64,000 bases of DNA from Octopus vulgaris (taxonomy: Eukaryota). Below, piece by piece: positions 7,084 through 35,454 of this stretch (position 1 is the first letter of the stretch; every line of letters begins with the position of its first letter). The notes beneath the pieces are model-generated. The model did no database searches and had not been told where the DNA came from. It was given only the letters and a program-made list of their open reading frames with translations. Both the position numbers and the translations under genes were made by a program. The DNA is taken from contig OX597838.1 of assembly GCA_951406725.2 (NCBI GenBank), positions 42,966,001-43,030,000 of the forward strand. The letters run 5' to 3'.

Positions 7084-7389
7084 CTATTGTTCTACATTTA
7101 AGAGATGAGGAATTAAGTACATTATTTGCATTTGACGAATATTTGTTTTATGCCCACAGGCATATGGCATAGTGGTTAAGAGTGTGGGCTACTAATCCCA
7201 AGATTCCAAGCAGTGACCTGAATAATATTAATGATAATAATAAGAATAACATCGAGAAATACCATAGGAATGAGAACCCAGGTTCGAAATTTCCCCAAGA
7301 CACCTGATGAAGGCTGGAGGGTATATCAGCCGAAACGTGTTAACAATGAATAAGATGAGGACAAATATCCATCAAATGTAAATAATGTA
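7084..7389 (+). mobile_element. Short element with tRNA-like head, hammerhead core and inverted terminal duplication
   Basis: A-box TGGCATAGTGG (7165) and anticodon-arm-like TGGGCTACTAATCCCA; B-box-like GGTTCGAAAT (7281); GACAC-CTGATGA-A-GGCTG(N10)CAGCC-GAAAC-GTGTT (7299-7341). Segment 7118-7146 is an inverted copy of 7361-7389. Flanking direct repeat TATCTTGGA at 7075 and 7388. Confidence 0.65.
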
Positions 7390-11160: not shown

Positions 11161-11680
11161 CACATATACATATATACACACACATACACACACACACACA
11201 TGCATGAATATGATGGGGTTTCATTCAGTATCCATTTCCGCCTACCAAATCCGCTTGCAAGGCTTTGGCCAGGCCGTGAGGCTATAGCAGAAGATACTTG
11301 CTTAAGGTGCCATGCAGAAGGACTGAACCTGAAACCACATTTCTGCAGCAAACAGCTTAACCACCCGGCCAAAAGCCATGCTTTGCAGTTTAAACAAAGA
11401 GCAGATCGTAAACAAGAGCCTGATTGCAGACAGTCAAACATTCAACAGCAAAAATCCATAACAGACGGTGTGTCCTCATTATTTCATTGCTATCAGAACA
11501 TTGACAAGGAGGGAGTACTTACCTGCTCATTGATCAGATAACTCTTAACTCTCTTGTAATCATACTTATAGGGTTTATCTTTTGAATCTGAACTACATTT
11601 CCTGATCCAGGAAGATTTCACAATCATGACATTCCAAACATTGTAATCTAAATTACTTGGCATATATTTGCCTGAGTGGA

Positions 11681-14600
11681 CACGAGAGGCCCTTGACAAG
11701 CGTTAGAGGAATGGGGGTTGTTTAGCCCCAGGATACGAGAGGTCTTTGGCAAGCGCTAGAGGAATGGGGGTTGTTTAGCCCCAGGATACGAGAGGTCTTT
11801 GGCAAACGCTTCAAGAATGGGGGTTGTTTAGCCCCAGGATACGAGAGGTCTTTGGCAAGCGCTAGAGGAATGGGGGTTGTTTAGCCCCCAGGATACGAAA
11901 GGCCTTCGGCAAGTGCTTGAGGAGTGGGGGTTCTTTACCCTCAGGATACGAGAGGTCTTTGGCAAACGCTTCAAGAATGGGGGTTGTTTAGCCCCAGGAT
12001 ACGAGAGGTCTGTGGCAAGCGCTAGAGGAATGGGGGTTGTTTAGCCCCAGGATACGAAAGGCCTTCGGCAAGTGCTTGAGGAGTGGGGGTTCTTTAGCCT
12101 CAGGATACGAGAGGTCTTTGGCAAGCGCTAGAGGAATGGGGGTTGTTTAGCCCCAGGATACGAAAGGCCTTCGGCAAGTGCTTGAGGCATGGGGGTTGTT
12201 TAGCCTCAGGATACGAGAGGTCTTTGGCAAGCGCTAGAGGAATGGAGGTTGTTTAGCGCCAGGATACGAGAGGTCTTTGGCAAGCGCTAGAGGAATGGGG
12301 GTTGTTTAGCCCCAGGATACGAGAGGTCTTTGGCAAGTGCTTGAGGAGTGGGGGTTGTTTAGCCTCAGGTTACGAGAGGTCTTTGGCAAGTGCTAGAGGA
12401 ATGGGGGTTGTTTAGCTCCAGAATACGAGAGGTCTTTGGCAAGTGCTAGAGGAATGGGGGTTGTTTAAGCACCAGGATACGAGGCCTTTGGCAAGCACTT
12501 GAGAAATGGGGGTTGTTTAGCCCCAGGATACGAGAGGTCTTTGGCAAGCACTTCAAGAATGGGGGTTGTTTAGCCCCAGGATACGAGAGGTCTTTGGCAA
12601 ACGCTTCAAGAATGGGGGTTGTTTAGCCCCAGGATACGAGAGGTCTTTGGCAAGTGCTTCAAGAATGGGGGTTGTTTAAGCACCAGGATACGAGAGTTCT
12701 TTGGCAAGCGCTAGAGGAATGGGGGTTGTTTAAGCACCAGGATATGAGAGGTCTTTGGCAAGCGCTTCAAGAATGGGGGTTGTTTAGCCCCAGGATACGA
12801 GAGGTCTTTGGCAAACGCTTCAAGAATGGGGGTTGTTTAGCCCCAGGATACGAGAGGTCTTTGGCAAGTGCTTCAAGAATGGGGGTTGCTTAGCCCCAGG
12901 ATACGAGAGGTCTTTGGCAAGCGCTTGAGGAATGGGGGTTATTTAAGTATCAGGATACGAGAGGTCTTTGGCAAGCGCTTGAGGAATGGGGGTTGTTTAG
13001 CCCCAGGATACGAGAGGCCTTTGGCAAGTGCTTGAGGAATGGGGGTTGTTTAGCCCCAGGATACGAGAGGCCTTTGGCAAGTGCTTGAGGAATGGGGGTT
13101 GTTTAGCCCCAGGATACGAGAGGTCTTTGGCAAGCGCCAGAGGAATGGGGGTTGTTTAGCCCCAGGATACGAGAGGTCTTTGGCAAACGCTTCAAGAATG
13201 GGGGTTGTTTAGCCCCAGGATACGAGAGGTCTTTGGCAAGCGCTAGAGGAATGGGGGTTGTTTAGCCCCCAGGATACGAAGGCCTTCGGCAAGTGCTTGA
13301 GGAGTGGGGGTTCTTTACCCTCAGGATACGAGAGGTCTTTGGCAAACGCTTCAAGAATGGGGGTTGTTTAGCCCCAGGATACGAGAGGTCTGTGGCAAGC
13401 GCTAGAGGAATGGGGGTTGTTTAGCCCCAGGATACGAAAGGCCTTCGGCAAGTGCTTGAGGAGTGGGGGTTCTTTAGCCTCAGGATACGAGAGGTCTTTG
13501 GCAAGCGCTAGAGGAATGGGGGTTGTTTAGCCCCAGGATACGAAAGGCCTTCGGCAAGTGCTTGAGGCATGGGGGTTGTTTAGCCTCAGGATACGAGAGG
13601 TCTTTGGCAAGCGCTAGAGGAATGGAGGTTGTTTAGCGCCAGGATACGAGAGGTCTTTGGCAAGCGCTAGAGGAATGGGGGTTGTTTAGCCCCAGGATAC
13701 GAGAGGTCTTTGGCAAGTGCTTGAGGAGTGGGGGTTGTTTAGCCTCAGGTTACGAGAGGTCTTTGGCAAGTGCTAGAGGAATGGGGGTTGTTTAGCTCCA
13801 GAATACGAGAGGTCTTTGGCAAGTGCTAGAGGAATGGGGGTTGTTTAAGCACCAGGATACGAGGCCTTTGGCAAGCACTTGAGAAATGGGGGTTGTTTAG
13901 CCCCAGGATACGAGAGGTCTTTGGCAAGCACTTCAAGAATGGGGGTTGTTTAGCCCCAGGATACGAGAGGTCTTTGGCAAACGCTTCAAGAATGGGGGTT
14001 GTTTAGCCCCAGGATACGAGAGGTCTTTGGCAAGTGCTTCAAGAATGGGGGTTGTTTAAGCACCAGGATACGAGAGTTCTTTGGCAAGCGCTAGAGGAAT
14101 GGGGGTTGTTTAAGCACCAGGATATGAGAGGTCTTTGGCAAGCGCTTCAAGAATGGGGGTTGTTTAGCCCCAGGATACGAGAGGTCTTTGGCAAACGCTT
14201 CAAGAATGGGGGTTGTTTAGCCCCAGGATACGAGAGGTCTTTGGCAAGTGCTTCAAGAATGGGGGTTGCTTAGCCCCAGGATACGAGAGGTCTTTCGCAA
14301 GCGCTTGAGGAATGGGGGTTATTTAAGTATCAGGATACGAGAGGTCTTTGGCAAGCGCTTGAGGAATGGGGGTTGTTTAGCCCCAGGATACGAGAGGCCT
14401 TTGGCAAGTGCTTGAGGAATGGGGGTTGTTTAGCCCCAGGATACGAGAGGCCTTTGGCAAGTGCTTGAGGAATGGGGGTTGTTTAGCCCCAGGATACGAG
14501 AGGTCTTTGGCAAGCGCTTGAGGAATGGGGGTTGTTTAGCCCCAGGATACGAGAGGTCTTTGGCAAGCGCTAGAGGAATGGGGGTTGTTTAGCCCCAGGA

Positions 14601-17600
14601 TACGAGAGGTCTTTGGCAAACGCTTCAAGAATGGGGGTTGTTTAGCCCCAGGATACGAGAGGTCTTTGGCAAGCGCTAGAGGAATGGGGGTTATTTAGCC
14701 CCAGGATACGAAAGGCCTTCGGCAAGCGCTTCAGGAGTGGGGGTTCTTTACCCTCAGGATACGAGAGGTCTTTGGCAAACGCTTCAAGAATGGGGGTTGT
14801 TTAGCCCCAGGATACGAGAGGTCTGTGGCAAGCGCTAGAGGAATGGGGGTTGTTTAGCCCCAGGATACGAAAGGCCTTCGGCAAGTGCTTGGGGAGTGGG
14901 GGTTCTTTAGCCTCAGGATACGAGAGGTCTTTGGCAAGCGCTAGAGGAATGGGGGTTGTTTAGCCCCAGGATACGAAAGGCCTTCGGCAAGTGCTTGAGG
15001 CATGGGGGTTGTTTAGCCTCAGGATACGAGAGGTCTTTGGCAAGCGCTAGAGGAATGGAGGTTGTTTAGCGCCAGGATACGAGAGGTCTTTGGCAAGCGC
15101 TAGAGGAATGGGGGTTGTTTAGCCCCAGGATACGAGAGGTCTTTGGCAAGTGCTTGAGGAGTGGGGGTTGTTTAGCCTCAGGTTACGAGAGGTCTTTGGC
15201 AAGTGCTAGAGGAATGGGGGTTGTTTAGCTCCAGAATACGAGAGGTCTTTGGCAAGTGCTAGAGGAATGGGAGTTGTTTAAGCACCAGGATACGAGGCCT
15301 TTGGCAAGCACTTGAGAAATGGGGGTTGTTTAGCCCCAGGATACGAGAGGTCTTTGGCAAGCACTTCAAGAATGGGGGTTGTTTAGCCCCAGGATACGAG
15401 AGGTCTTTGGCAAACGCTTCAAGAATGGGGGTTGTTTAGCCCCAGGATACGAGAGGTCTTTGGCAAGTGCTTCAAGAATGGGGGTTGTTTAAGCACCAGG
15501 ATACGAGAGTTCTTTGGCAAGCGCTAGAGGAATGGGGGTTGTTTAAGCACCAGGATATGAGAGGTCTTTGGCAAGCGCTTCAAGAATGGGGGTTGTTTAG
15601 CCCCAGGATACGAGAGGTCTTTGGCAAACGCTTCAAGAATGGGGGTTGTTTAGCCTCAGGATACGAGAGGTCTTTGGCAAGTGCTTCAAGAATGGGGGTT
15701 GCTTAGCCCCAGGATACGAGAGGTCTTTGGCAAGCGCTTGAGGAATGGGGGTTATTTAAGTATCAGGATACGAGAGGTCTTTGGCAAGCGCTTGAGGAAT
15801 GGGGGTTGTTTAGCCCCAGGATACGAGAGGCCTTTGGCAAGTGCTTGAGGAATGGGGGTTGTTTAGCCCCAGGATACGAGAGGCCTTTGGCAAGTGCTTG
15901 AGGAATGGGGGTTGTTTGGCCCCAGGATACGAGAGGTCTTTGGCAAGCGCTTGAGGAATGGGGGTTGTTTAGCCCCAGGATACGAGAGGTCTTTGGCAAG
16001 TGCTTGAGGAATGGGGGTTGTTTAGCCCCAGGATACGAGAGGTCTTTGGCAAGTGCTTCAAGAATGGGGGTTGTTTAGCCCCAGGATACGAGAGGTCTTT
16101 GGCAAGCACTTGAAGAATGGGGGTTGTTTAGCCCCAGGATACGAGAGGGGGTTGTTTAGCCCCAGGATACGAGAGGGGATTGTTTAGCCCCAGATTATGA
16201 GAGGTCTTTGGCAAACGCTTCAAGAATGGGGGTTGTTTAGCCCCAGGATACAAGAGGTCTTTGGCAAACACTTCAAGAATGGGGGTTGTTTAACCCCAGG
16301 ATACGAGTGGTTTTTGGCAAGCACTTCAAGAATGGGGGTTATTTAGCCCCAGGATACAAGAGGTCTTTGGCAAACGCTTCAAGAATGGGGGTTGTTTAAC
16401 CCCAGGATACGAGAGGTTTTTGGCAAGCACTTCAAGAATGGGGGTTATTTAGCCCCAGGATATGAGAGGTCGTTGGCAAACGCTAGAGGAATGGGGGTTG
16501 TTTAGCCCCAGGATACGAAAGGCCTTTGGCAAGCGCTAGAGGAATGGGGGTTGTTTAGCCCCAGGATATGAGAGGTCTTTGACAAACGCTTCAAGAATGG
16601 GGGTTGTTTAGCCCCAGGATACGAGAGGTCTTTGGCAAGCACTTCAAGAATGGGGTCATTTAGCCCCAGGATACGAGAGGCCTTTGGCAAGCGCTTGAGG
16701 AATGGGGATTCTTTGGCCCCAGAATACAAGAGGACTTTGGAAAGCGCTTGAGAAATATGGGTTGTTTAGCCCAAGGATATGAGAGGCCTTTGGCAAGCGC
16801 TTGAGAAATGGGGGTTGTTTCAGTACCAGGATACGAGAGGTCTTTCCCAAGAGCTTGAGGAATGGGGGTTCTTTGGCCCCAGAATACGAGAGGTCTTTGG
16901 CAAGCGCTAGAGGAATGGGGGTTGTTTAGCCCCAGGAGACGAGAGGCATTTGTGCAAGCGCTTCAGGAATGGGGGTTGTTTAAGCACCAGGATACGAGAG
17001 GCCTTTGGCAAGCAATGAGGAATGAGGGTTGTTTAAGCACCAGGATACGAGAGGTCTTTGGCAGGGACTAGAGGAATGGGGGTTGTTTAGCCCCAGAATA
17101 CGAAAGGCCTTTGGCAAGCGCTTGAGAAATAGGGTTTGTTTAAGCACCAGGATACGAGAGGCCTTTGGCAAGAGCTTGAGGAATGGGGGTTGTATAAGGA
17201 ACAGGATACGAGAGGTCTTTGGCAAGTGCTTAGGGATGGGGGTTGTTTATCCCCAGGATCCGAGAGGCCTTTGGCAAGCGCTTCAAGAATGGGGGTTGTT
17301 TAGCCCCATGATAGGAGAGGCCTTTGTCAAGCGCTTCAGGAATGGGGGTGGTTTAGCCCCAGGATACGGGAGGTCTTTTGCAAGCACTTGAAGAATGGGG
17401 GTTGTTAAAGCATCAGGATACGAAAGGTCTTTGGCAAGCGCTAGAGGAATGGGGGTTATTTAGCCCCAGGATACGAGAGGTCTATCGCAAGCGCTAGAGG
17501 AATGGGGGTTGTTTAAGCACCAGGATACGATAGGTCTTTGGCAAGCGCTTGAGGAATGGGGTTTGTTTAGCCCCAGGATACGAGAGGACTCTGGCAAACA

Positions 17601-20600
17601 CTTGAGGAATGGGGTTTGTTTAGCCGCAGGATACGAGAGGTCTTTGGCAAGCGCTTCAGGAATGGGGGTTGTTTAGCCCCAGGATACAAGAGGCCTTTGG
17701 CAAGCGCTTGAGGAATGGGGGTTGTTTAGCCCCAGGATACGAGAGGTCTTTGGCAAACGCTTCAAGAATGGGGGTTGTTTAAGCATCAGGATACGAGAGG
17801 CCTTTGGCAAGCGCTTGAGGAATGAGGGTTGTTTAAGTACCAGGATACGAGAGGCCTTTCACAAGCGCTTGAGGAATGGGGTTTGTTTAGCCCCAGGATA
17901 CGAGAGGACTCTGGCAAACACTTGAGGAATGGGGTTTGTTTAGCCGCAGGATACGAGAGGTTTTTGGCAAGCGCTTCAGGAATGGGGGTTGTTTAAGCAT
18001 CAGGATATGAGAGGCCTTTGGCAAACGCTTGAGGAATGGGGGTTGTTTAAGCATCAGGATATGAGACGCCTTTGGCAAACGCTTGAGGAATGGGGGTTGT
18101 TTAAGCACCAGGATACGAGAGGTCTTTGGCAAGCGCTTGAGGAATGGGGGTTGTTTAGCCCCAGGATACGAGAGGTCTTTGGCAAGCGCTTGAGGAATGG
18201 GGGTTGTTTAGCCCCAGGATACGAGAGGTCTTTGGCAAACACTTCAAGAATGGGGGTTGTTTAAGCATCAGGTTACGAGAGGCCTTTGGCAAGCGCTTGA
18301 GGAATGAGGGTTGTTTAAGCACCAGGATACGAAAGGCCTTTGGCAAGCAATGAGGAATGGGGTTTGTTTAAGCACCAGGATACGAGAGGTCTTTGGCAGG
18401 GACTAGAGGAATGGGGGTTGTTTAGCCCCAGGATACGAAAGGCCTTTGGCAAGCGCTTGAGAAATAGGGTTTGTTTAAGCACCAGGATACGAGAGGCCTT
18501 TGGCAAGAGCTTGAGGAATGGGGGTTGTTTAAGGAACAGGATACGAGAGGTCTTTGGCAAGTGCTTAGGGATGGGGGTTGTTTATCCCCAGGATCTGAGA
18601 GGCCCTTGGCAAGCGCTTCAAGAATGGGGGTTGTTTAGCCCCGTGATACGAGAGGCCTTTGTCAAGCGCTTCAGGAATGGGGGGGGTTTAGCCCCAGGAT
18701 ACGAGAGGCTTTTGTCAAGCGCTTGAGGAATGGGGGTTGTTAAAGCACCAGGATACGAAAGGTCTTTGGCAAGCGCTAGAGGAATGGGGGTTATTTAGCC
18801 CCAGGATACGAGAGGTCTTTGGCAAGCGCTAGAGGAATGGGGGTTGTTTAGCCCCAGGATACGAGAGGTCTTTGGCAGGGACTAGAGAAATGGGGGTTGT
18901 TTAGCCCCAGGATATGAAAGGCCTTTGGCAAGCGCTTGAGAAATAGGGTTTGTTTAAGCACCAGGATACGAGAGGCCTTTGGCAAGCGCTTGAGAAATGG
19001 GGGTTGTTTAAGGAACAGGATACGAGAGGTTTTTGGCAAGTGCTTAGGGATGGGGGTTGTTTATCCCCAGAATCCGAAAGGCCCTTGGCAAGCGCTTCAA
19101 GAATGGGGGTTGTTTAGCCCCATGATACGAGAGGTCTTTGGCAAGCGTTTGAGGAATGGGGGTTGTTTAGCCCCATGATACGAGAGGTCTTTCTCAAGCG
19201 CTTCAGGAATGGGGGTGGTTTAGCCCCAGGATACGCGAAGCCTTTGTCAAGCGCTTGAGGAATGGGGATTGTTTCAGAACCATGATACGGGATATCCTTT
19301 GCAAGCACTTGAAGAATGGGGGTTGTTCAGCCCCAGAATATGAGAGGCCTTTGGCAAGCGCTTGAGGAATGGGGGTTGTTTAGCCCCAGGATACAAGAGG
19401 TCTTTGGCAAGCGCTAGAGGAATGGGAGTTATTTAGCCCCAGGATACGAGAGGTCTTTGGCAAGCGCTAAAGGAATGGGGGTTTTTTAAGCACCAGGATA
19501 CGAGAGGTCTTTGCAAGCGCTTGAGGAATGGGGGTTGTTTAAGTACCAGGATACGAGAGGTCTTTCGCAAGCGCTTGAGGAATGGGGGTTGTTTAGCCCC
19601 AGGGTACGAGAGGCCTTTGGCAAGCGCTTGAGGAATGGGGGTTGTTTAGCCCCAGGGTACGAGAGGCCTTTGGCAAGCGCTTGAGGAATGGGGGTTGTTT
19701 AGCCCCAGGATACGAGAGGTCTTTGGCAAGCGCTTCAAGAATGGGGGTTGTTTAGCCCCAGGATACGAGAGGGGGTTGTTTAGCCCCAGATTATGAGAGG
19801 TCTTTGGCAAACGCTTCAAGAATGGGGGTTGTTTAGCCCCAGGATACAAGAGGTCTTTGGCAAACACTTCAAGAATGGGGGTTGTTTAACCCCAGGATAC
19901 GAGTGGTTTTTGGCAAGCACTTCAAGAATGGGGGTTATTTAGCCCCAGGATACAAGAGGTCTTTGGCAAACGCTTCAAGAATGGGGGTTGTTTACCCCAG
20001 GATACGAGAGGTTTTTGGCAAGCACTTCAAGAATGGGGGTTATTTAGCCCCAGGATATGAGAGGTCGTTGGCAAACGCTAGAGGAATGGGGGTTGTTTAG
20101 CCCCAGGATACGAAAGGCCTTTGGCAAGCGCTAGAGGAATGGGGGTTGTTTAGCCCCAGGATATGAGAGGTCTTTGACAAACGCTTCAAGAATGGGGGTT
20201 GTTTAGCCCCAGGATACGAGAGGTCTTTGGCAAGCACTTCAAGAATGGGGTCATTTAGCCCCAGGATACGAGAGGCCTTTGGCAAGCGCTTGAGGAATGG
20301 GGATTCTTTGGCCCAGAATACAAGAGGACTTTGGAAAGCGCTTGAGAAATATGGGTTGTTTAGCCCAAGGATATGAGAGGCCTTTGGCAAGCGCTTGAGA
20401 AATGGGGGTTGTTTCAGTACCAGGATACGAGAGGTCTTTCCCAAGAGCTTGAGGAATGGGGGTTCTTTGGCCCCAGAATACGAGAGGTCTTTGGCAAGCG
20501 CTAGAGGAATGGGGGTTGTTTAGCCCCAGGAGACGAGAGGCATTTGTGCAAGCGCTTCAGGAATGGGGGTTGTTTAAGCACCAGGATACGAGAGGCCTTT

Positions 20601-23600
20601 GGCAAGTAATGAGGAATGAGGGTTGTTTAAGCACCAGGATACGAGAGGTCTTTGGCAGGGACTAGAGGAATGGGGGTTGTTTAGCCCCAGAATACGAAAG
20701 GCCTTTGGCAAGCGCTTGAGAAATAGGGTTTGTTTAAGCACCAGGATACGAGAGGCCTTTGGCAAGAGCTTGAGGAATGGGGGTTGTATAAGGAACAGGA
20801 TACGAGAGGTCTTTGGCAAGTGCTTAGGGATGGGGGTTGTTTATCCCCAGGATCCGAGAGGCCTTTGGCAAGCGCTTCAAGAATGGGGGTTGTTTAGCCC
20901 CATGATAGGAGAGGCCTTTGTCAAGCGCTTCAGGAATGGGGGTGGTTTAGCCCCAGGATACGGGAGGTCTTTTGCAAGCACTTGAAGAATGGGGGTTGTT
21001 AAAGCATCAGGATACGAAAGGTCTTTGGCAAGCGCTAGAGGAATGAGGGTTATTTAGCCCCAGGATACGAGAGGTCTATCGCAAGCGCTAGAGGAATGGG
21101 GGTTGTTTAAGTACCAGGATACGAGAGGCCTTTCACAAGCGCTTGAGGAATGGGGTTTGTTTAGCCCCAGGATACGAGAGGACTCTGGCAAACACTTGAG
21201 GAATGGGGTTTGTTTAGCCGCAGGATACGAGAGGTCTTTGGCAAGCGCTTCAGGAATGGGGGTTGTTTAGCCCCAGGATACGAGAGGACTCTGGCAAACA
21301 CTTGAGGAATGGGGTTTGTTTAGCCGCAGGATACGAGAGGTTTTTGGCAAGCGCTTCAAGAATGGGGGTTGTTTAAGCATCAGGATACGAGAGGCCTTTG
21401 GCAAACGCTTGAGGAATGAGGGTTGTTTAAGTACCAGGATACGAGAGGCCTTTCACAAGCGCTTGAGGAATGGGGTTGTTTAGCCCCAGGATACGAGAGG
21501 ACTCTGGCAAACACTTGAGGAATGGGGTTTGTTTAGCCGCAGGATACGAGAGGTTTTTGGCAAGCGCTTCAGGAATGGGGGTTGTTTAAGCATCAGGATA
21601 TGAGACACCTTTGGCAAACGCTTGAGGAATGGGGGTTGTTTAAGCATCAGGATATGAGACGCCTTTGGCAAACGCTTGAGGAATGGGGGTTGTTTAAGCA
21701 CCAGGATACGAGAGGCCTTTGGCAAGCGCTTGAGGAATGGGGGTTGTTTAAGCACCAGGATACGAGAGGTCTTTGGCAGGGACTAGAGGAATGGGGGTTG
21801 TTTAGCCCCAGGATACAAGAGGCCTTTGGCAAGCGCTTGAGGAATGGGGGTTGTTTAGCCCCAGGATACGAGAGGTCTTTGGCAAACGCTTCAAGAATGG
21901 GGGTTGTTTAAGCATCAGGTTACGAGAGGCCTTTGGCAAGCGCTTGAGGAATGAGGGTCGTTTAAGCACCAGGATACGAAAGGCCTTTGGCAAGCAATGA
22001 GGAATGGGGTTTGTTTAAGCACTAGGATACGAGAGGTCTTTGGCAGGGACTAGAGGAATGGGGGTTGTTTAGCCCCAGGATACGAAAGGCCTTTGGCAAG
22101 CGCTTGAGAAATAGGGTTTGTTTAAGCACCAGGATACGAGAGGCCTTTGGCAAGAGCTTGAGGAATGGGGGTTGTTTAAGGAACAGAATACGAGAGGTCT
22201 TTGGCAAGTGCTTAGGGATGGGGGTTGTTTATCCCCAGGATCTGAGAGGCCCTTGGCAAGCGCTTCAAGAATGGGGGTTGTTTAGCCCCGTGATACGAGA
22301 GGCCTTTGTCAAGCGCTTCAGGAATGGGGGGGTTTAGCCCCAGGATACGAGAGGCCTTTGTCAAGCGCTTGAGGAATGGGGGTTGTTAAAGCACCAGGAT
22401 ACGAAAGGTCTTTGGCAAGCGCTAGAGGAATGGGGTTTATTTAGCCCCAGGATACGAGAGGTCTTTGGCAAGCGCTAGAGGAATGGGGGTTGTTTAAGCA
22501 CCAGGATACGATAGGTCTTTGGCAAGCGCTTGAGGAATGGGGGTTGTTTAGCCCCAGGATACGAGAGGTCTTTGGCAGGGACTAGAGAAATGGGGGTTGT
22601 TTAGCCCCAGGATATGAAAGGCCTTTGGCAAGCGCTTGAGAAATAGGGTTTGTTTAAGCACCAGGATACGAGAGGCCTTTGGCAAGCGCTTGAGGAATGG
22701 GGGTTGTTTAAGGAACAGGATACGAGAGGTTTTTGGCAAGTGCTTAGGGATGGGGGTTGTTTATCCCCAGAATCCGAAAGGCCCTTGGCAAGCGCTTCAA
22801 GAATGGGGGTTGTTTAGCCCCATGATACGAGAGGTCTTTGGCAAGCGTTTGAGGAATGGGGGTTGTTTAGCCCCATGATATGAGAGGTCTTTCTCAAGCG
22901 CTTCAGGAATGGGGGTGGTTTAGCCCCAGGATACGCGAAGCCTTTGTCAAGCGCTTGAGGAATGGGGATTGTTTCAGAACCATGATACGGGATATCCTTT
23001 GCAAGCACTTGAAGAATGGGGGTTGTTCAGCCCCAGAATATGAGAGGCCTTTGGCAAGCGCTTGAGGAATGGGGGTTGTTTAGCCCCAGGGTACGAGAGG
23101 CCTTTGGCAAGCGCTTGAGGAATGGGGGTTGTTTAGCCCCAGGATACGAGAGGTCTTTGGCAAGCGCTTGAGGAATGGGGGTTATTTAGCCCCAGGATAC
23201 GAAAGGCCTTCGGCAAGCGCTTCAGGAATGGGGGTTGTTTAGTACCAGGATACGAGAGGTCTTTCGCAAGCTCTTGAGGAATGGGGGTTGTTTAGCCCCG
23301 GGTACGAGAGGTCTTTGGCAAGCGCTAGAGGAATGGAGGTTGTTTAACCCCGGGATACGAAAGGCCTTTGGCAAGCGCTTCAGGAATAGGGGTTGTTTAG
23401 TAGCGGCATACGAGAAGTCTTTGGCAAGCGGTTGAGGAATGGAGGTTGTTTAAGCACCAGGATACGAGAGGTCTTTGGCAAGCGCTTGAGGAATGGGGGT
23501 TGATTAAGCACCAGGATACGAGAGGTCTTTGGCAAGCGTTTGAGGAATGGGGGTTGATTAAGCACCAGGATACGAGAGGTCTTTGGCAAGCGCTTGAGGA

Positions 23601-24801
23601 ATGGGGGTTGTTTAGCCCCAGGATACGAGAGGTCTTTGGCAAACGCTTCAAGAATGGGGGTTGATTAAGCACCAGGATACGAGAGGTCTTTGGCAAGCGC
23701 TTGAGGAATGGGGGTTGTTTAGCCCCAGGATACGAGAGGTCTTTGGCAAGCGTTTGAGGAATGGGGGTTGTTTAGCCCAAGTATACGAGAGGTCTTTGGC
23801 AAGCGCTTGAGAAATAGGGTTTGTTTAAGCACCAGGATACGAGAGGCCTTTGGCAAGAGCTTGAGGAATGGGGGTTGTTTAAGGAACAGGATACGAGAGG
23901 TCTTTGGCAAGTGCTTAGGGATGGGGGTTGTTTATATTACAGGATCCGAGAGGCCCTTGGCAAGCGCTTCAAGAATGGGGGTTGTTTAGCCCCATGATAT
24001 GAGAGGCCTTTGTCAAGCGCTTCAGGAATGGGGGTTGTTTAAGCATCGGGATACGAGAGGCCTTTGGCGAGCGCTTAAGGAATGGGGGTTGTTTAAGCAC
24101 CAGGATACGAAAGGCCTTTGGCAAGCGCTTGAGAAATAGGGTTTGTTTAAGCACTAGGATACGAGAGGCCTTTGGCAAGAGCTTGAGGAATGGGGGTTGT
24201 TTAAGGAACAGGATACGAGGGGTCTTTGGCAAGTGCTTAGGGATGGGGGTTGTTTATCCCAGAATCCGAGAGGCCCTTGGCAAGTGCTTCAAGAATGGGG
24301 GTTGTTTAGCCCCATGATACGAGAGGTCTTTGTCAAGCGCTTGAGGAATGGGGGTTGTTTCAGAACCATGATACGGGAGATCTTTTGCAAGCACTTGAAG
24401 AATGGGTGTTGTTTAGCCCCAGAATACGAGAGGCCTTTGGCAAGCGCTTGAGGAATGGGGGTTGTTTAGCCCCGGGATACGAGAGGTCTTTGGCAAGCGC
24501 TAGAGGAATGGGGGTTATTTAGCCCCAGGATACGAGAGGTCTTTGGCAAGCGCTTGAGGAATGGGGGTTGTTTAAGTACCAGGATACGAGAGGTCTTTGG
24601 CAAGCGTTTGAGGAATGGGGTTCGTTTAGCCCCAGGATACGAGAGGTCTTTGGCAAGCGCTAGAGGAATGGGGGTTGATTAAGCACCCGGATACGAGAGG
24701 TCTTTTGGCAAGCGCTTGAGGAATGGGGGTTGTTTAGCCCCAGGATACGAGAGGTCTTTGGCAAGCGGTTGAGGAATGGGGGTTGATTAAGCATCAGGAT
24801 A
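11681..24801. repeat. Satellite array, 53/54-bp monomer (consensus ~GAGGAATGGGGGTTGTTTAGCCCCAGGATACGAGAGGTCTTTGGCAAGCGCTT), roughly 245 copies with higher-order repeats
   Basis: Directly visible tandem monomers. Near-identical spurious ORFs at 12654/14034/15467 give periods of 1380 and 1433 bp; those at 16862/20456 and 18936/22636 give periods of ~3594-3700 bp. Confidence 0.98.
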
Positions 24802-34281: not shown

Positions 34282-34600
34282 AGTCAATCGTACGTTCTGT
34301 TGCGCTAGCAACGCTTTTTCATTATTTTCTACAGACATTCCATTAGAAATTGTAGCCAGCACTGATTTTGCTGCATCGTTTCGTATCGAGACATCAGATG
34401 TAAACAAACAATGAGATAAAAAACAAAGTGAGTAATTTTTATGCAGTTTTGTCCTCGATATCTCGTTGTTTGTTTCTATCTGACGTCTCGATACGAAACG
34501 TTGCAGCAAAAATCAGTGCTGGCTTCAATGATTTCCATAGAATAATATCTGTGGAAATTAACCTGAACGAAAGTATTAAACGTACAAACGAATCGACTCT
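34282..34600. repeat. Imperfect foldback / MITE-like inverted repeat
   Basis: Arms of ~95 bp (agccagcactgattttgctgcatcgtttcgtatcgagacatcagat vs atctgacgtctcgatacgaaacgttgcagcaaaaatcagtgctggct) around a ~40-nt spacer, with weaker outer pairing. Confidence 0.8.
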
Positions 34601-35112: not shown

Positions 35113-35149
<37 letters not shown>

Positions 35150-35187
35150 CACATATCCATATACATATACATATATATATATGCATA

Positions 35188-35221
<34 letters not shown>

Positions 35222-35350
35222 GGTCCCGGGTTGAGTCGGGGTTAACCACAGTAAATAAGGTACTCTATACATAGCAGAGTGAATTAATTTATTTTATAGA
35301 AGGAGCTTCTACAGGACTAGAACTGTTTCATTCAAAAGAAATCATCAGGA

Positions 35351-35401
35351 AGCTTCCTGATGATTTCTTTTGAATGAAACAGTTCTAGTCCTGTAGAAGC
35401 T
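35351..35401 (+). ncRNA. Type I hammerhead ribozyme motif (identical copy on the minus strand at 35354-35304)
   Basis: AGCUUC-CUGAUGA-U[UUC UUUU GAA]U-GAAAC AG(UUCUAGUC)CU-GUA/GAAGCU. It has a 6-bp stem I, a conserved core, a short stem II with a U-U at its base, a stem III, and a GUA cleavage triplet at 35393-35395. Confidence 0.75.
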
Positions 35402-35412
35402 CCTTCTATAAA

Positions 35413-35454
<42 letters not shown>

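Follow-up and report, generated by a model that had tools for sequence, protein, structure and literature searches.

What might explain why the Octopus vulgaris genome carries, within a TA microsatellite, a perfect palindrome that spells a predicted hammerhead ribozyme on both strands? The window, 64,000 nucleotides of contig OX597838.1, contains at positions 35287-35418 a perfect palindrome of 132 bp, with arms of 66 and 66 bp, a spacer of 0 and its centre at AG|CT (35352/35353). A sequence-only reading had described this spacerless palindrome and its position in an insertion of about 200 bp between (TA)n runs, and direct checking of the sequence bears out both. The insertion is a 200-bp unit, 35219-35418, with (TA)n target microsatellite at either edge (35131-35218 on the tail side and 35413, or 35419, to 35452 on the tailless side). 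If the A of AGCT is numbered +1, the unit consists of a tailed arm on the minus strand (35219-35354, +1 to +136), the last 68 nt of which form a tail (35219-35286, +69 to +136), and a tailless arm on the plus strand (35351-35418, +1 to +68). These would correspond to two cDNAs, cDNA 1 and cDNA 2, and the AGCT common to both arms (35351-35354, +1 to +4) would be both the RNA 5' end and the microhomology that joined them. The earlier reading was also correct in placing the junction at the 5' edge of the ribozyme, AGCT being the first bases of stem I. The hairpin formed by the palindrome has a predicted energy of -106.1 kcal/mol, with a z of -23.8 relative to shuffled sequences.

Is the hammerhead itself credible? 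One strand reads stem I AGCUUC, CUGAUGA and U, stem II UUC-UUUU-GAA, U and GAA, stem III ACAG-UUCUAGUC-CUGU, A, and finally GAAGCU, and the other strand has an identical pattern. The two candidate type I hammerheads occupy 35304-35354 (minus strand, predicted cut after 35310) and 35351-35401 (plus strand, predicted cut after A35395). The type I core of CUGANGA, GAA, A15.1-U16.1 and H17, and all three stems, are present. The G10.1-C11.1 pair is absent and a U.U takes its place, as in 14 of the 26 Hydra rows of File S2 of PMC8557442; that this U.U at the base of stem II represents decay was rejected, because the same U.U is found in those rows. The layout of both arms fits the Hydra-clade hammerheads of that file. 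An Rfam search, one of the checks that had been proposed, returned no hammerhead family match in the window or in one non-palindromic parent copy, where generic hairpin models fell below gathering scores. Left to fold freely, one arm does not adopt the ribozyme fold (z about 0), which at -7.3 kcal/mol lies within 0.3 of the minimum free energy of -7.6 kcal/mol. Common variants are located at N7, loop II and loop III, positions that give modest evidence of constraint on a hammerhead.

Other repeats are found in the window. A minimal hammerhead pattern with an extra A and a G10.1-C11.1 pair, at 7304-7336, probably belongs to another Penelope-like family, and a second inverted repeat at 34330-34550 (53-nt core arms, 91% complementary, 40-nt spacer), possibly MITE-like, contains a degenerate hammerhead-like string. 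A 53-bp tandem satellite of about 247 copies with a G-rich strand bias extends from 11678 to 24801.

The palindrome belongs to a large family. A search of the species' own genome (2.8 Gb) gave 497 candidates, and the 40 that were scored are 99-100% identical across the whole unit. There are 167 loci with the exact central 40-mer and another 282 with two variant haplotypes, making at least 449 loci in three haplotypes with one common centre. Genome-wide, a 22-mer taken from the arm was counted 7,430 times, indicating at least 7,430 arms. All 30 loci that were read have distinct flanks, each in TA runs, with (TA)n on the tail side in 30 of 30 and on the other side in 29 of 30. The element is also present in public runs labelled as four organisms, and a contig from one public run (DNA, uncertain; possibly not independent of the assembly) spans the centre with 49 and 36 letters. 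Homopolymer lengths differ among copies, so small assembly errors are possible, but hundreds of loci, the separate flanks of the 30 copies read, arm-specific substitutions, a one-sided tail and the bridging contig leave a sequencing or assembly fold-back artefact with a negligible chance. The palindrome is real.

Where does the unit come from? Long copies carry a matching hammerhead end and an ORF in which RWR, DKT, YRDD, CxCx5C and a GIY-YIG-type motif without CCHH can be read by eye; L064 and L175 are the copies in which the RT and endonuclease motifs were read. The strings that answer to the Hydra-clade motifs, likewise picked out by eye, are CNCPDKTTC, PSDKTK, RWR (K to R), CCDLCISE and CMH. 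The criteria come from section 11 of PMC8557442, on the Hydra clade of Penelope-like elements (PLEs). The features of endonuclease-bearing (EN+) PLEs are present here: an ORF with a reverse transcriptase (RT) plus a GIY-YIG endonuclease at its C-terminal end, as judged from motifs, pLTR tandems with an inverted 5'-truncated copy, and a tail at one end that is continuous with the element 5' region. The 68-nt tail is the start of that region, and 18 copies run on past its end, full-length copies extending through the 5' UTR toward the ORF. The Hydra-clade motif set (CxCX5C, DKT, RWK, no CCHH, and CxxC/CxH around E/N) was found by eye, with RWK as RWR, and the target is the (TA)n of that clade. 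A Pfam scan of the parent ORF gave RVT_1 with an E of 0.0033, below the cut-off, and a second Pfam scan of the parent sequence did not find RVT_1; a sub-threshold VtrA_C match was disregarded. Relatives number 1,098 among the 8,000 candidates scored, and the best 120 are 40-52% identical and mostly of about 700 aa. Every copy read is interrupted, and a programmed frameshift between RT and endonuclease was rejected, since the length of the C-run varies from 5 to 8 among copies. The element unit measures about 5.3 kb, and its 3' UTR is long and rich in microsatellites. In L064 (2880-5380) and L175 the 3' UTR is 2.5-3 kb, largely TA/TG microsatellites, and longer than in published Hydra elements. 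Motifs, target and hammerhead pattern together argue for placement in the Hydra clade. The family appears to be previously unlisted, being absent from the one supplement of PMC8557442 that was checked.

The Penelope-like origin that had been proposed is upheld, long RT/GIY-YIG copies having identical ends, and among the insertions of a young Hydra-clade Penelope-like retrotransposon the 200-bp unit is the shortest form. Its head-to-head layout has already been published for PLEs, and in layout the unit is ordinary. The same early reading had called it non-autonomous or a retrozyme, and this part is not supported. A retrozyme would consist of head-to-tail tandems that give circular RNA, whereas all 30 loci read hold a single head-to-head unit, none of them in a tandem array. 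A non-autonomous family (SINE-, MITE- or retrozyme-like) amplified from one or a few palindromic masters might be suspected from at least 449 loci with one exact centre and copies that are 99% identical, and yet four tail-plus-arm haplotypes occur in palindromes and long copies alike, which speaks against a separate master. Moreover, the stub has no TATA box, many near-miss junctions fall around the same base, the units are not arrayed in tandem, and the hairpin would prevent the ribozyme fold; we regard such a family as very improbable. Shared haplotypes, a continuum of near-miss junctions around +1 and the loss of the TATA box argue against a separate non-autonomous family and suggest that stubs arise recurrently from long copies.

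Why should so many arms end at the same base? To define the junction, all exact-core arms of one haplotype on one contig (C1, n = 80) were taken as a census. Of these 80 arms, 41 end at +1, where hammerhead stem I begins, and about 11 of the other 39 stop within the next 145 nt, or 0.2% per nt. CTAG, which is equally palindromic and lies two bases upstream, is the centre in 0 of the 80 census arms and in no fetched locus. Solo and direct-tandem arms likewise start at +1/+2. The 18 copies that run into the 5' region fall into three groups of six, which start at +1/+2, are tandem, or start at other places. Of 65 parent-type arms, 64 have the first T of a TATAAAT 29 nt ahead of +1, and the bases between this TATA box and +1 differ by subfamily. 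L180, L181 and L183 are direct tandems: one copy begins at +1/+2, has a G in front of it and is attached to a point a few hundred bases inside the ORF.

The base that precedes +1 is also informative. In the 41 census arms it is A in 17, G in 18, C in 5 and T in 1, and genome-wide (n = 1,148 arms) 434 have A, 215 have G and 499 have T or C; the parent has mostly T, with a natural G at -1 in 2 of 65 parent-type arms. Seven of the 18 census junctions with G could have derived it from the partner arm; of the 18 junctions for which the partner arm gives no explanation, G stands at 11 (p 1.6e-4, junctions classed by eye). Untemplated G at the 5' ends of L1 and SVA has been interpreted as a copy of the cap (PMC4859970), and the extra G before +1 is likely to be a copied cap. 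The sharp stop at +1, the fixed TATA spacing and the excess of G lead us to infer that the element RNA is capped and starts at the first base of stem I. The same PLE stub could in principle end at +1 at a 3' splice site or an enzyme pause, AGCT being merely a joining hotspot. The bases before +3 do resemble a 3' splice site (pyrimidines and YAG), and the intron end of D. virilis Penelope maps to the Helix I 5' edge (PMC4209133). Nevertheless, no constant upstream exon is seen at the junctions, AG or G before +3 is retained, and neither the TATA spacing, the G excess nor the +1/+2 starts of solo and direct-tandem arms fit a splice site or pause, which makes this quite improbable.

How, then, did two arms come to face each other? 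The earlier interpretation had one strand folding back. As proposed for rotifer Penelope junctions, a single cDNA (or antisense RNA) would fold back at AGCT and copy itself, and this published model (PMC3846280) accounts well for symmetry: subfamily markers are equal on both arms in 50 of the 50 listed loci, three private variants are symmetric between arms, and at L265 an identical deletion is found on both, which counts against twin priming. Against it stand the long head-to-head insertions: 5 of 15 have ORF sequence in the tailless arm that is missing from the tailed arm, and the reverse is true in 3 of 15; both cannot arise from one primed strand. In simple palindromes a G deletion (+46/+49) is confined to one arm in 8 of 8 cases, four tailed and four tailless, a count that leaves out two of the 56 centre-palindromes (L104 and L141) that are not simple palindromes. 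At L266 the two arms carry different deletions, and at L184 one arm only has a subfamily marker. In addition, folding back at a terminal AGCT would require a 1-bp stem and a 2-nt loop. We consider the fold-back account unlikely, since long insertions and one-sided deletions indicate two separately primed copies. The symmetric markers, which fold-back predicts too, mean that twin priming would need one RNA or one source locus for both arms. PLEs are already known to have inverted arms, palindromes at their junctions and a tail on one side (PMC8557442; PMC3846280), and the protein of an anole PLE starts in vitro from two RNA sites at the borders of the tail and extends both strands of the target (PMC11167929). 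In a literature search whose coverage mostly excluded subscription papers, neither twin priming nor a cap-G signature for PLEs was found.

Arms that were primed separately and then joined via terminal AGCT are the core of the mechanism that we favour and think likely: the stub would consist of two reverse transcripts, one primed on each strand of a TA repeat that has been cut, which run off a probably capped RNA 5' end and anneal via AGCT. Its support comes from ends that are the same as those of long RT/GIY-YIG elements, a tail on one side in 56 of 56 centre-palindromes, the (TA)n flanks, the +1 stop and the TATA box 29 nt upstream. In this mechanism, Pol II would start transcription at the first base of hammerhead stem I, and the protein would begin to copy from +136 on one target strand and from about +68, 68 nt away, on the other. 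Priming on the 5' copy of the region would give two cDNAs that both end at +1, pair via AGCT and are filled in to a perfect palindrome, and priming on the 3' copy would give the long head-to-head insertions. The resulting promoterless stub would be a dead end.

What would the ribozyme do in such a cycle? Arms that start at the predicted cut with a non-A before it number 96 of about 7,430, so that they are no major class. Thirty of these arms were read and classed by eye: in nine, the +1 end of one arm is joined through stem-I microhomology to the stem I 3' strand of the other, 11 have substitutions, losses or short insertions at the cut base, and 10 are other. Joints of the first kind are expected if free cDNA ends seek complementarity. 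Arms that end exactly at the predicted cut, or have 2-3 extra bases there, were seen at L201/L202, L226/L227, L214 and L217.

Small deletions are a different matter. On the 3' side of the predicted cut, the first four bases carry deletions of 1-2 bases in 497 arms, compared with 17 for the four bases before it (29-fold); G deletions are found at +46/+49, and the commonest deletion is four bases from the predicted cut. The matching deletion in the same hexamer on the opposite stem I strand occurs in 5 arms, as against 1,148 intact ones. An unrelated repeat with the same 7-mer was found in 72 copies, of which 16 lack an anchor and the 56 anchored ones show 0 deletions; the element has 14 in 201 in the fetched loci. 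One deletion is common to three tandem units. The two G deletions are unlisted among short-read contigs, a comparison that is insensitive, since even a subfamily-common insertion reaches only 0.2% of depth in run X2. The hotspot is possibly an in-vivo footprint of ribozyme cleavage; stem I slippage or assembly error is also a possible source. A fuller version, in which a capped RNA from hammerhead base 1 and twin priming are combined with cutting in vivo, and the RT crosses a nick held by stem I and drops bases in about 6% of copies, is conceivable, and we put it forward tentatively as doubtful on balance. At L264 (G000:C1:151333750 region) one insertion holds three 60-nt tandem units with an identical G deletion in all.

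Host read-through of a stub was predicted at the outset to yield either an inert 66-bp hairpin or a self-cleaving ribozyme. The first part stands, as read-through RNA would form 66-bp double-stranded RNA. The second is unlikely, since transcription always reaches the antisense arm first and the hairpin has an advantage of about 98 kcal/mol over the ribozyme fold (the full palindrome has -8 kcal/mol in the ribozyme fold and -106 kcal/mol as a hairpin). The family has deposited at least 449 perfect or near-perfect inverted repeats of about 65 bp, each a predicted source of double-stranded RNA wherever it is transcribed. How PLEs make their inverted repeats, and whether the hammerhead acts in vivo, are stated as open in PMC8557442 and PMC11167929. 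A young family with thousands of copies offers base-exact predictions on these questions: an RNA start at +1/+2, a cap-derived G, joining via AGCT or stem I, errors that arise separately on the two arms, and lesions at the site of the cut. The value of the family is mainly as a large natural data set on PLE insertion.

The unit can be set beside several known systems. Insertions of EN+ PLEs (PMC8557442; PMC3846280) have the same head-to-head arms, junction palindrome, one-sided tail, hammerhead within the repeat and TATA-like pLTR promoter. They differ in having a tail of 30-40 nt, whereas it is 68 nt here, where one base-exact junction recurs at least 449 times, and in the published self-priming in place of the two primings favoured here. 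Hydra-clade elements, including Hydra-1_Obim (PMC8557442), share the C-terminal GIY-YIG without CCHH, CxCx5C, DKT, the (TA)n target and the U.U hammerhead. Hydra-1_Obim is a different family, with another N-terminus and another hammerhead, as compared by eye, and five motifs were not found in the supplement; relative to the clade, the family here replaces RWK by RWR, its unit is about 5.3 kb long with a long 3' UTR full of microsatellites, and its arms number at least 7,430. Poseidon PAc of Anolis (PMC11167929) is alike in its two RT start sites that bound the tail, the cutting and extension of both target strands and the AT-rich target. That account, in the text covered, contains nothing on the inverted arm or the RNA 5' end, and it reports no reads that end at the ribozyme cut. 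Non-LTR retrozymes (PMC7229834; bioRxiv 10.64898/2026.07.22.740005) are likewise short non-coding hammerhead units related to PLE pLTRs, but they form head-to-tail tandems, unlike the single head-to-head unit here. L098/L099 (G000:C7:106788895 region) holds units of about 154 nt arranged head to tail, each of which runs from +1/+2 to just beyond the tail; this retrozyme-like tandem was apparently produced by template jumps in succession. Three hammerhead ends in a row at about 8.5-kb spacing at L267 (G000:C2:206280198 region) suggest a larger tandem duplication. In L1 twin priming, the second primer anneals internally, which gives a 5' inversion without duplicated ends. Here, in contrast, both copies start near one end and duplicate that end, and the likeness to L1 consists in inversions made by two primings and an untemplated G at full-length 5' ends (PMC4859970).
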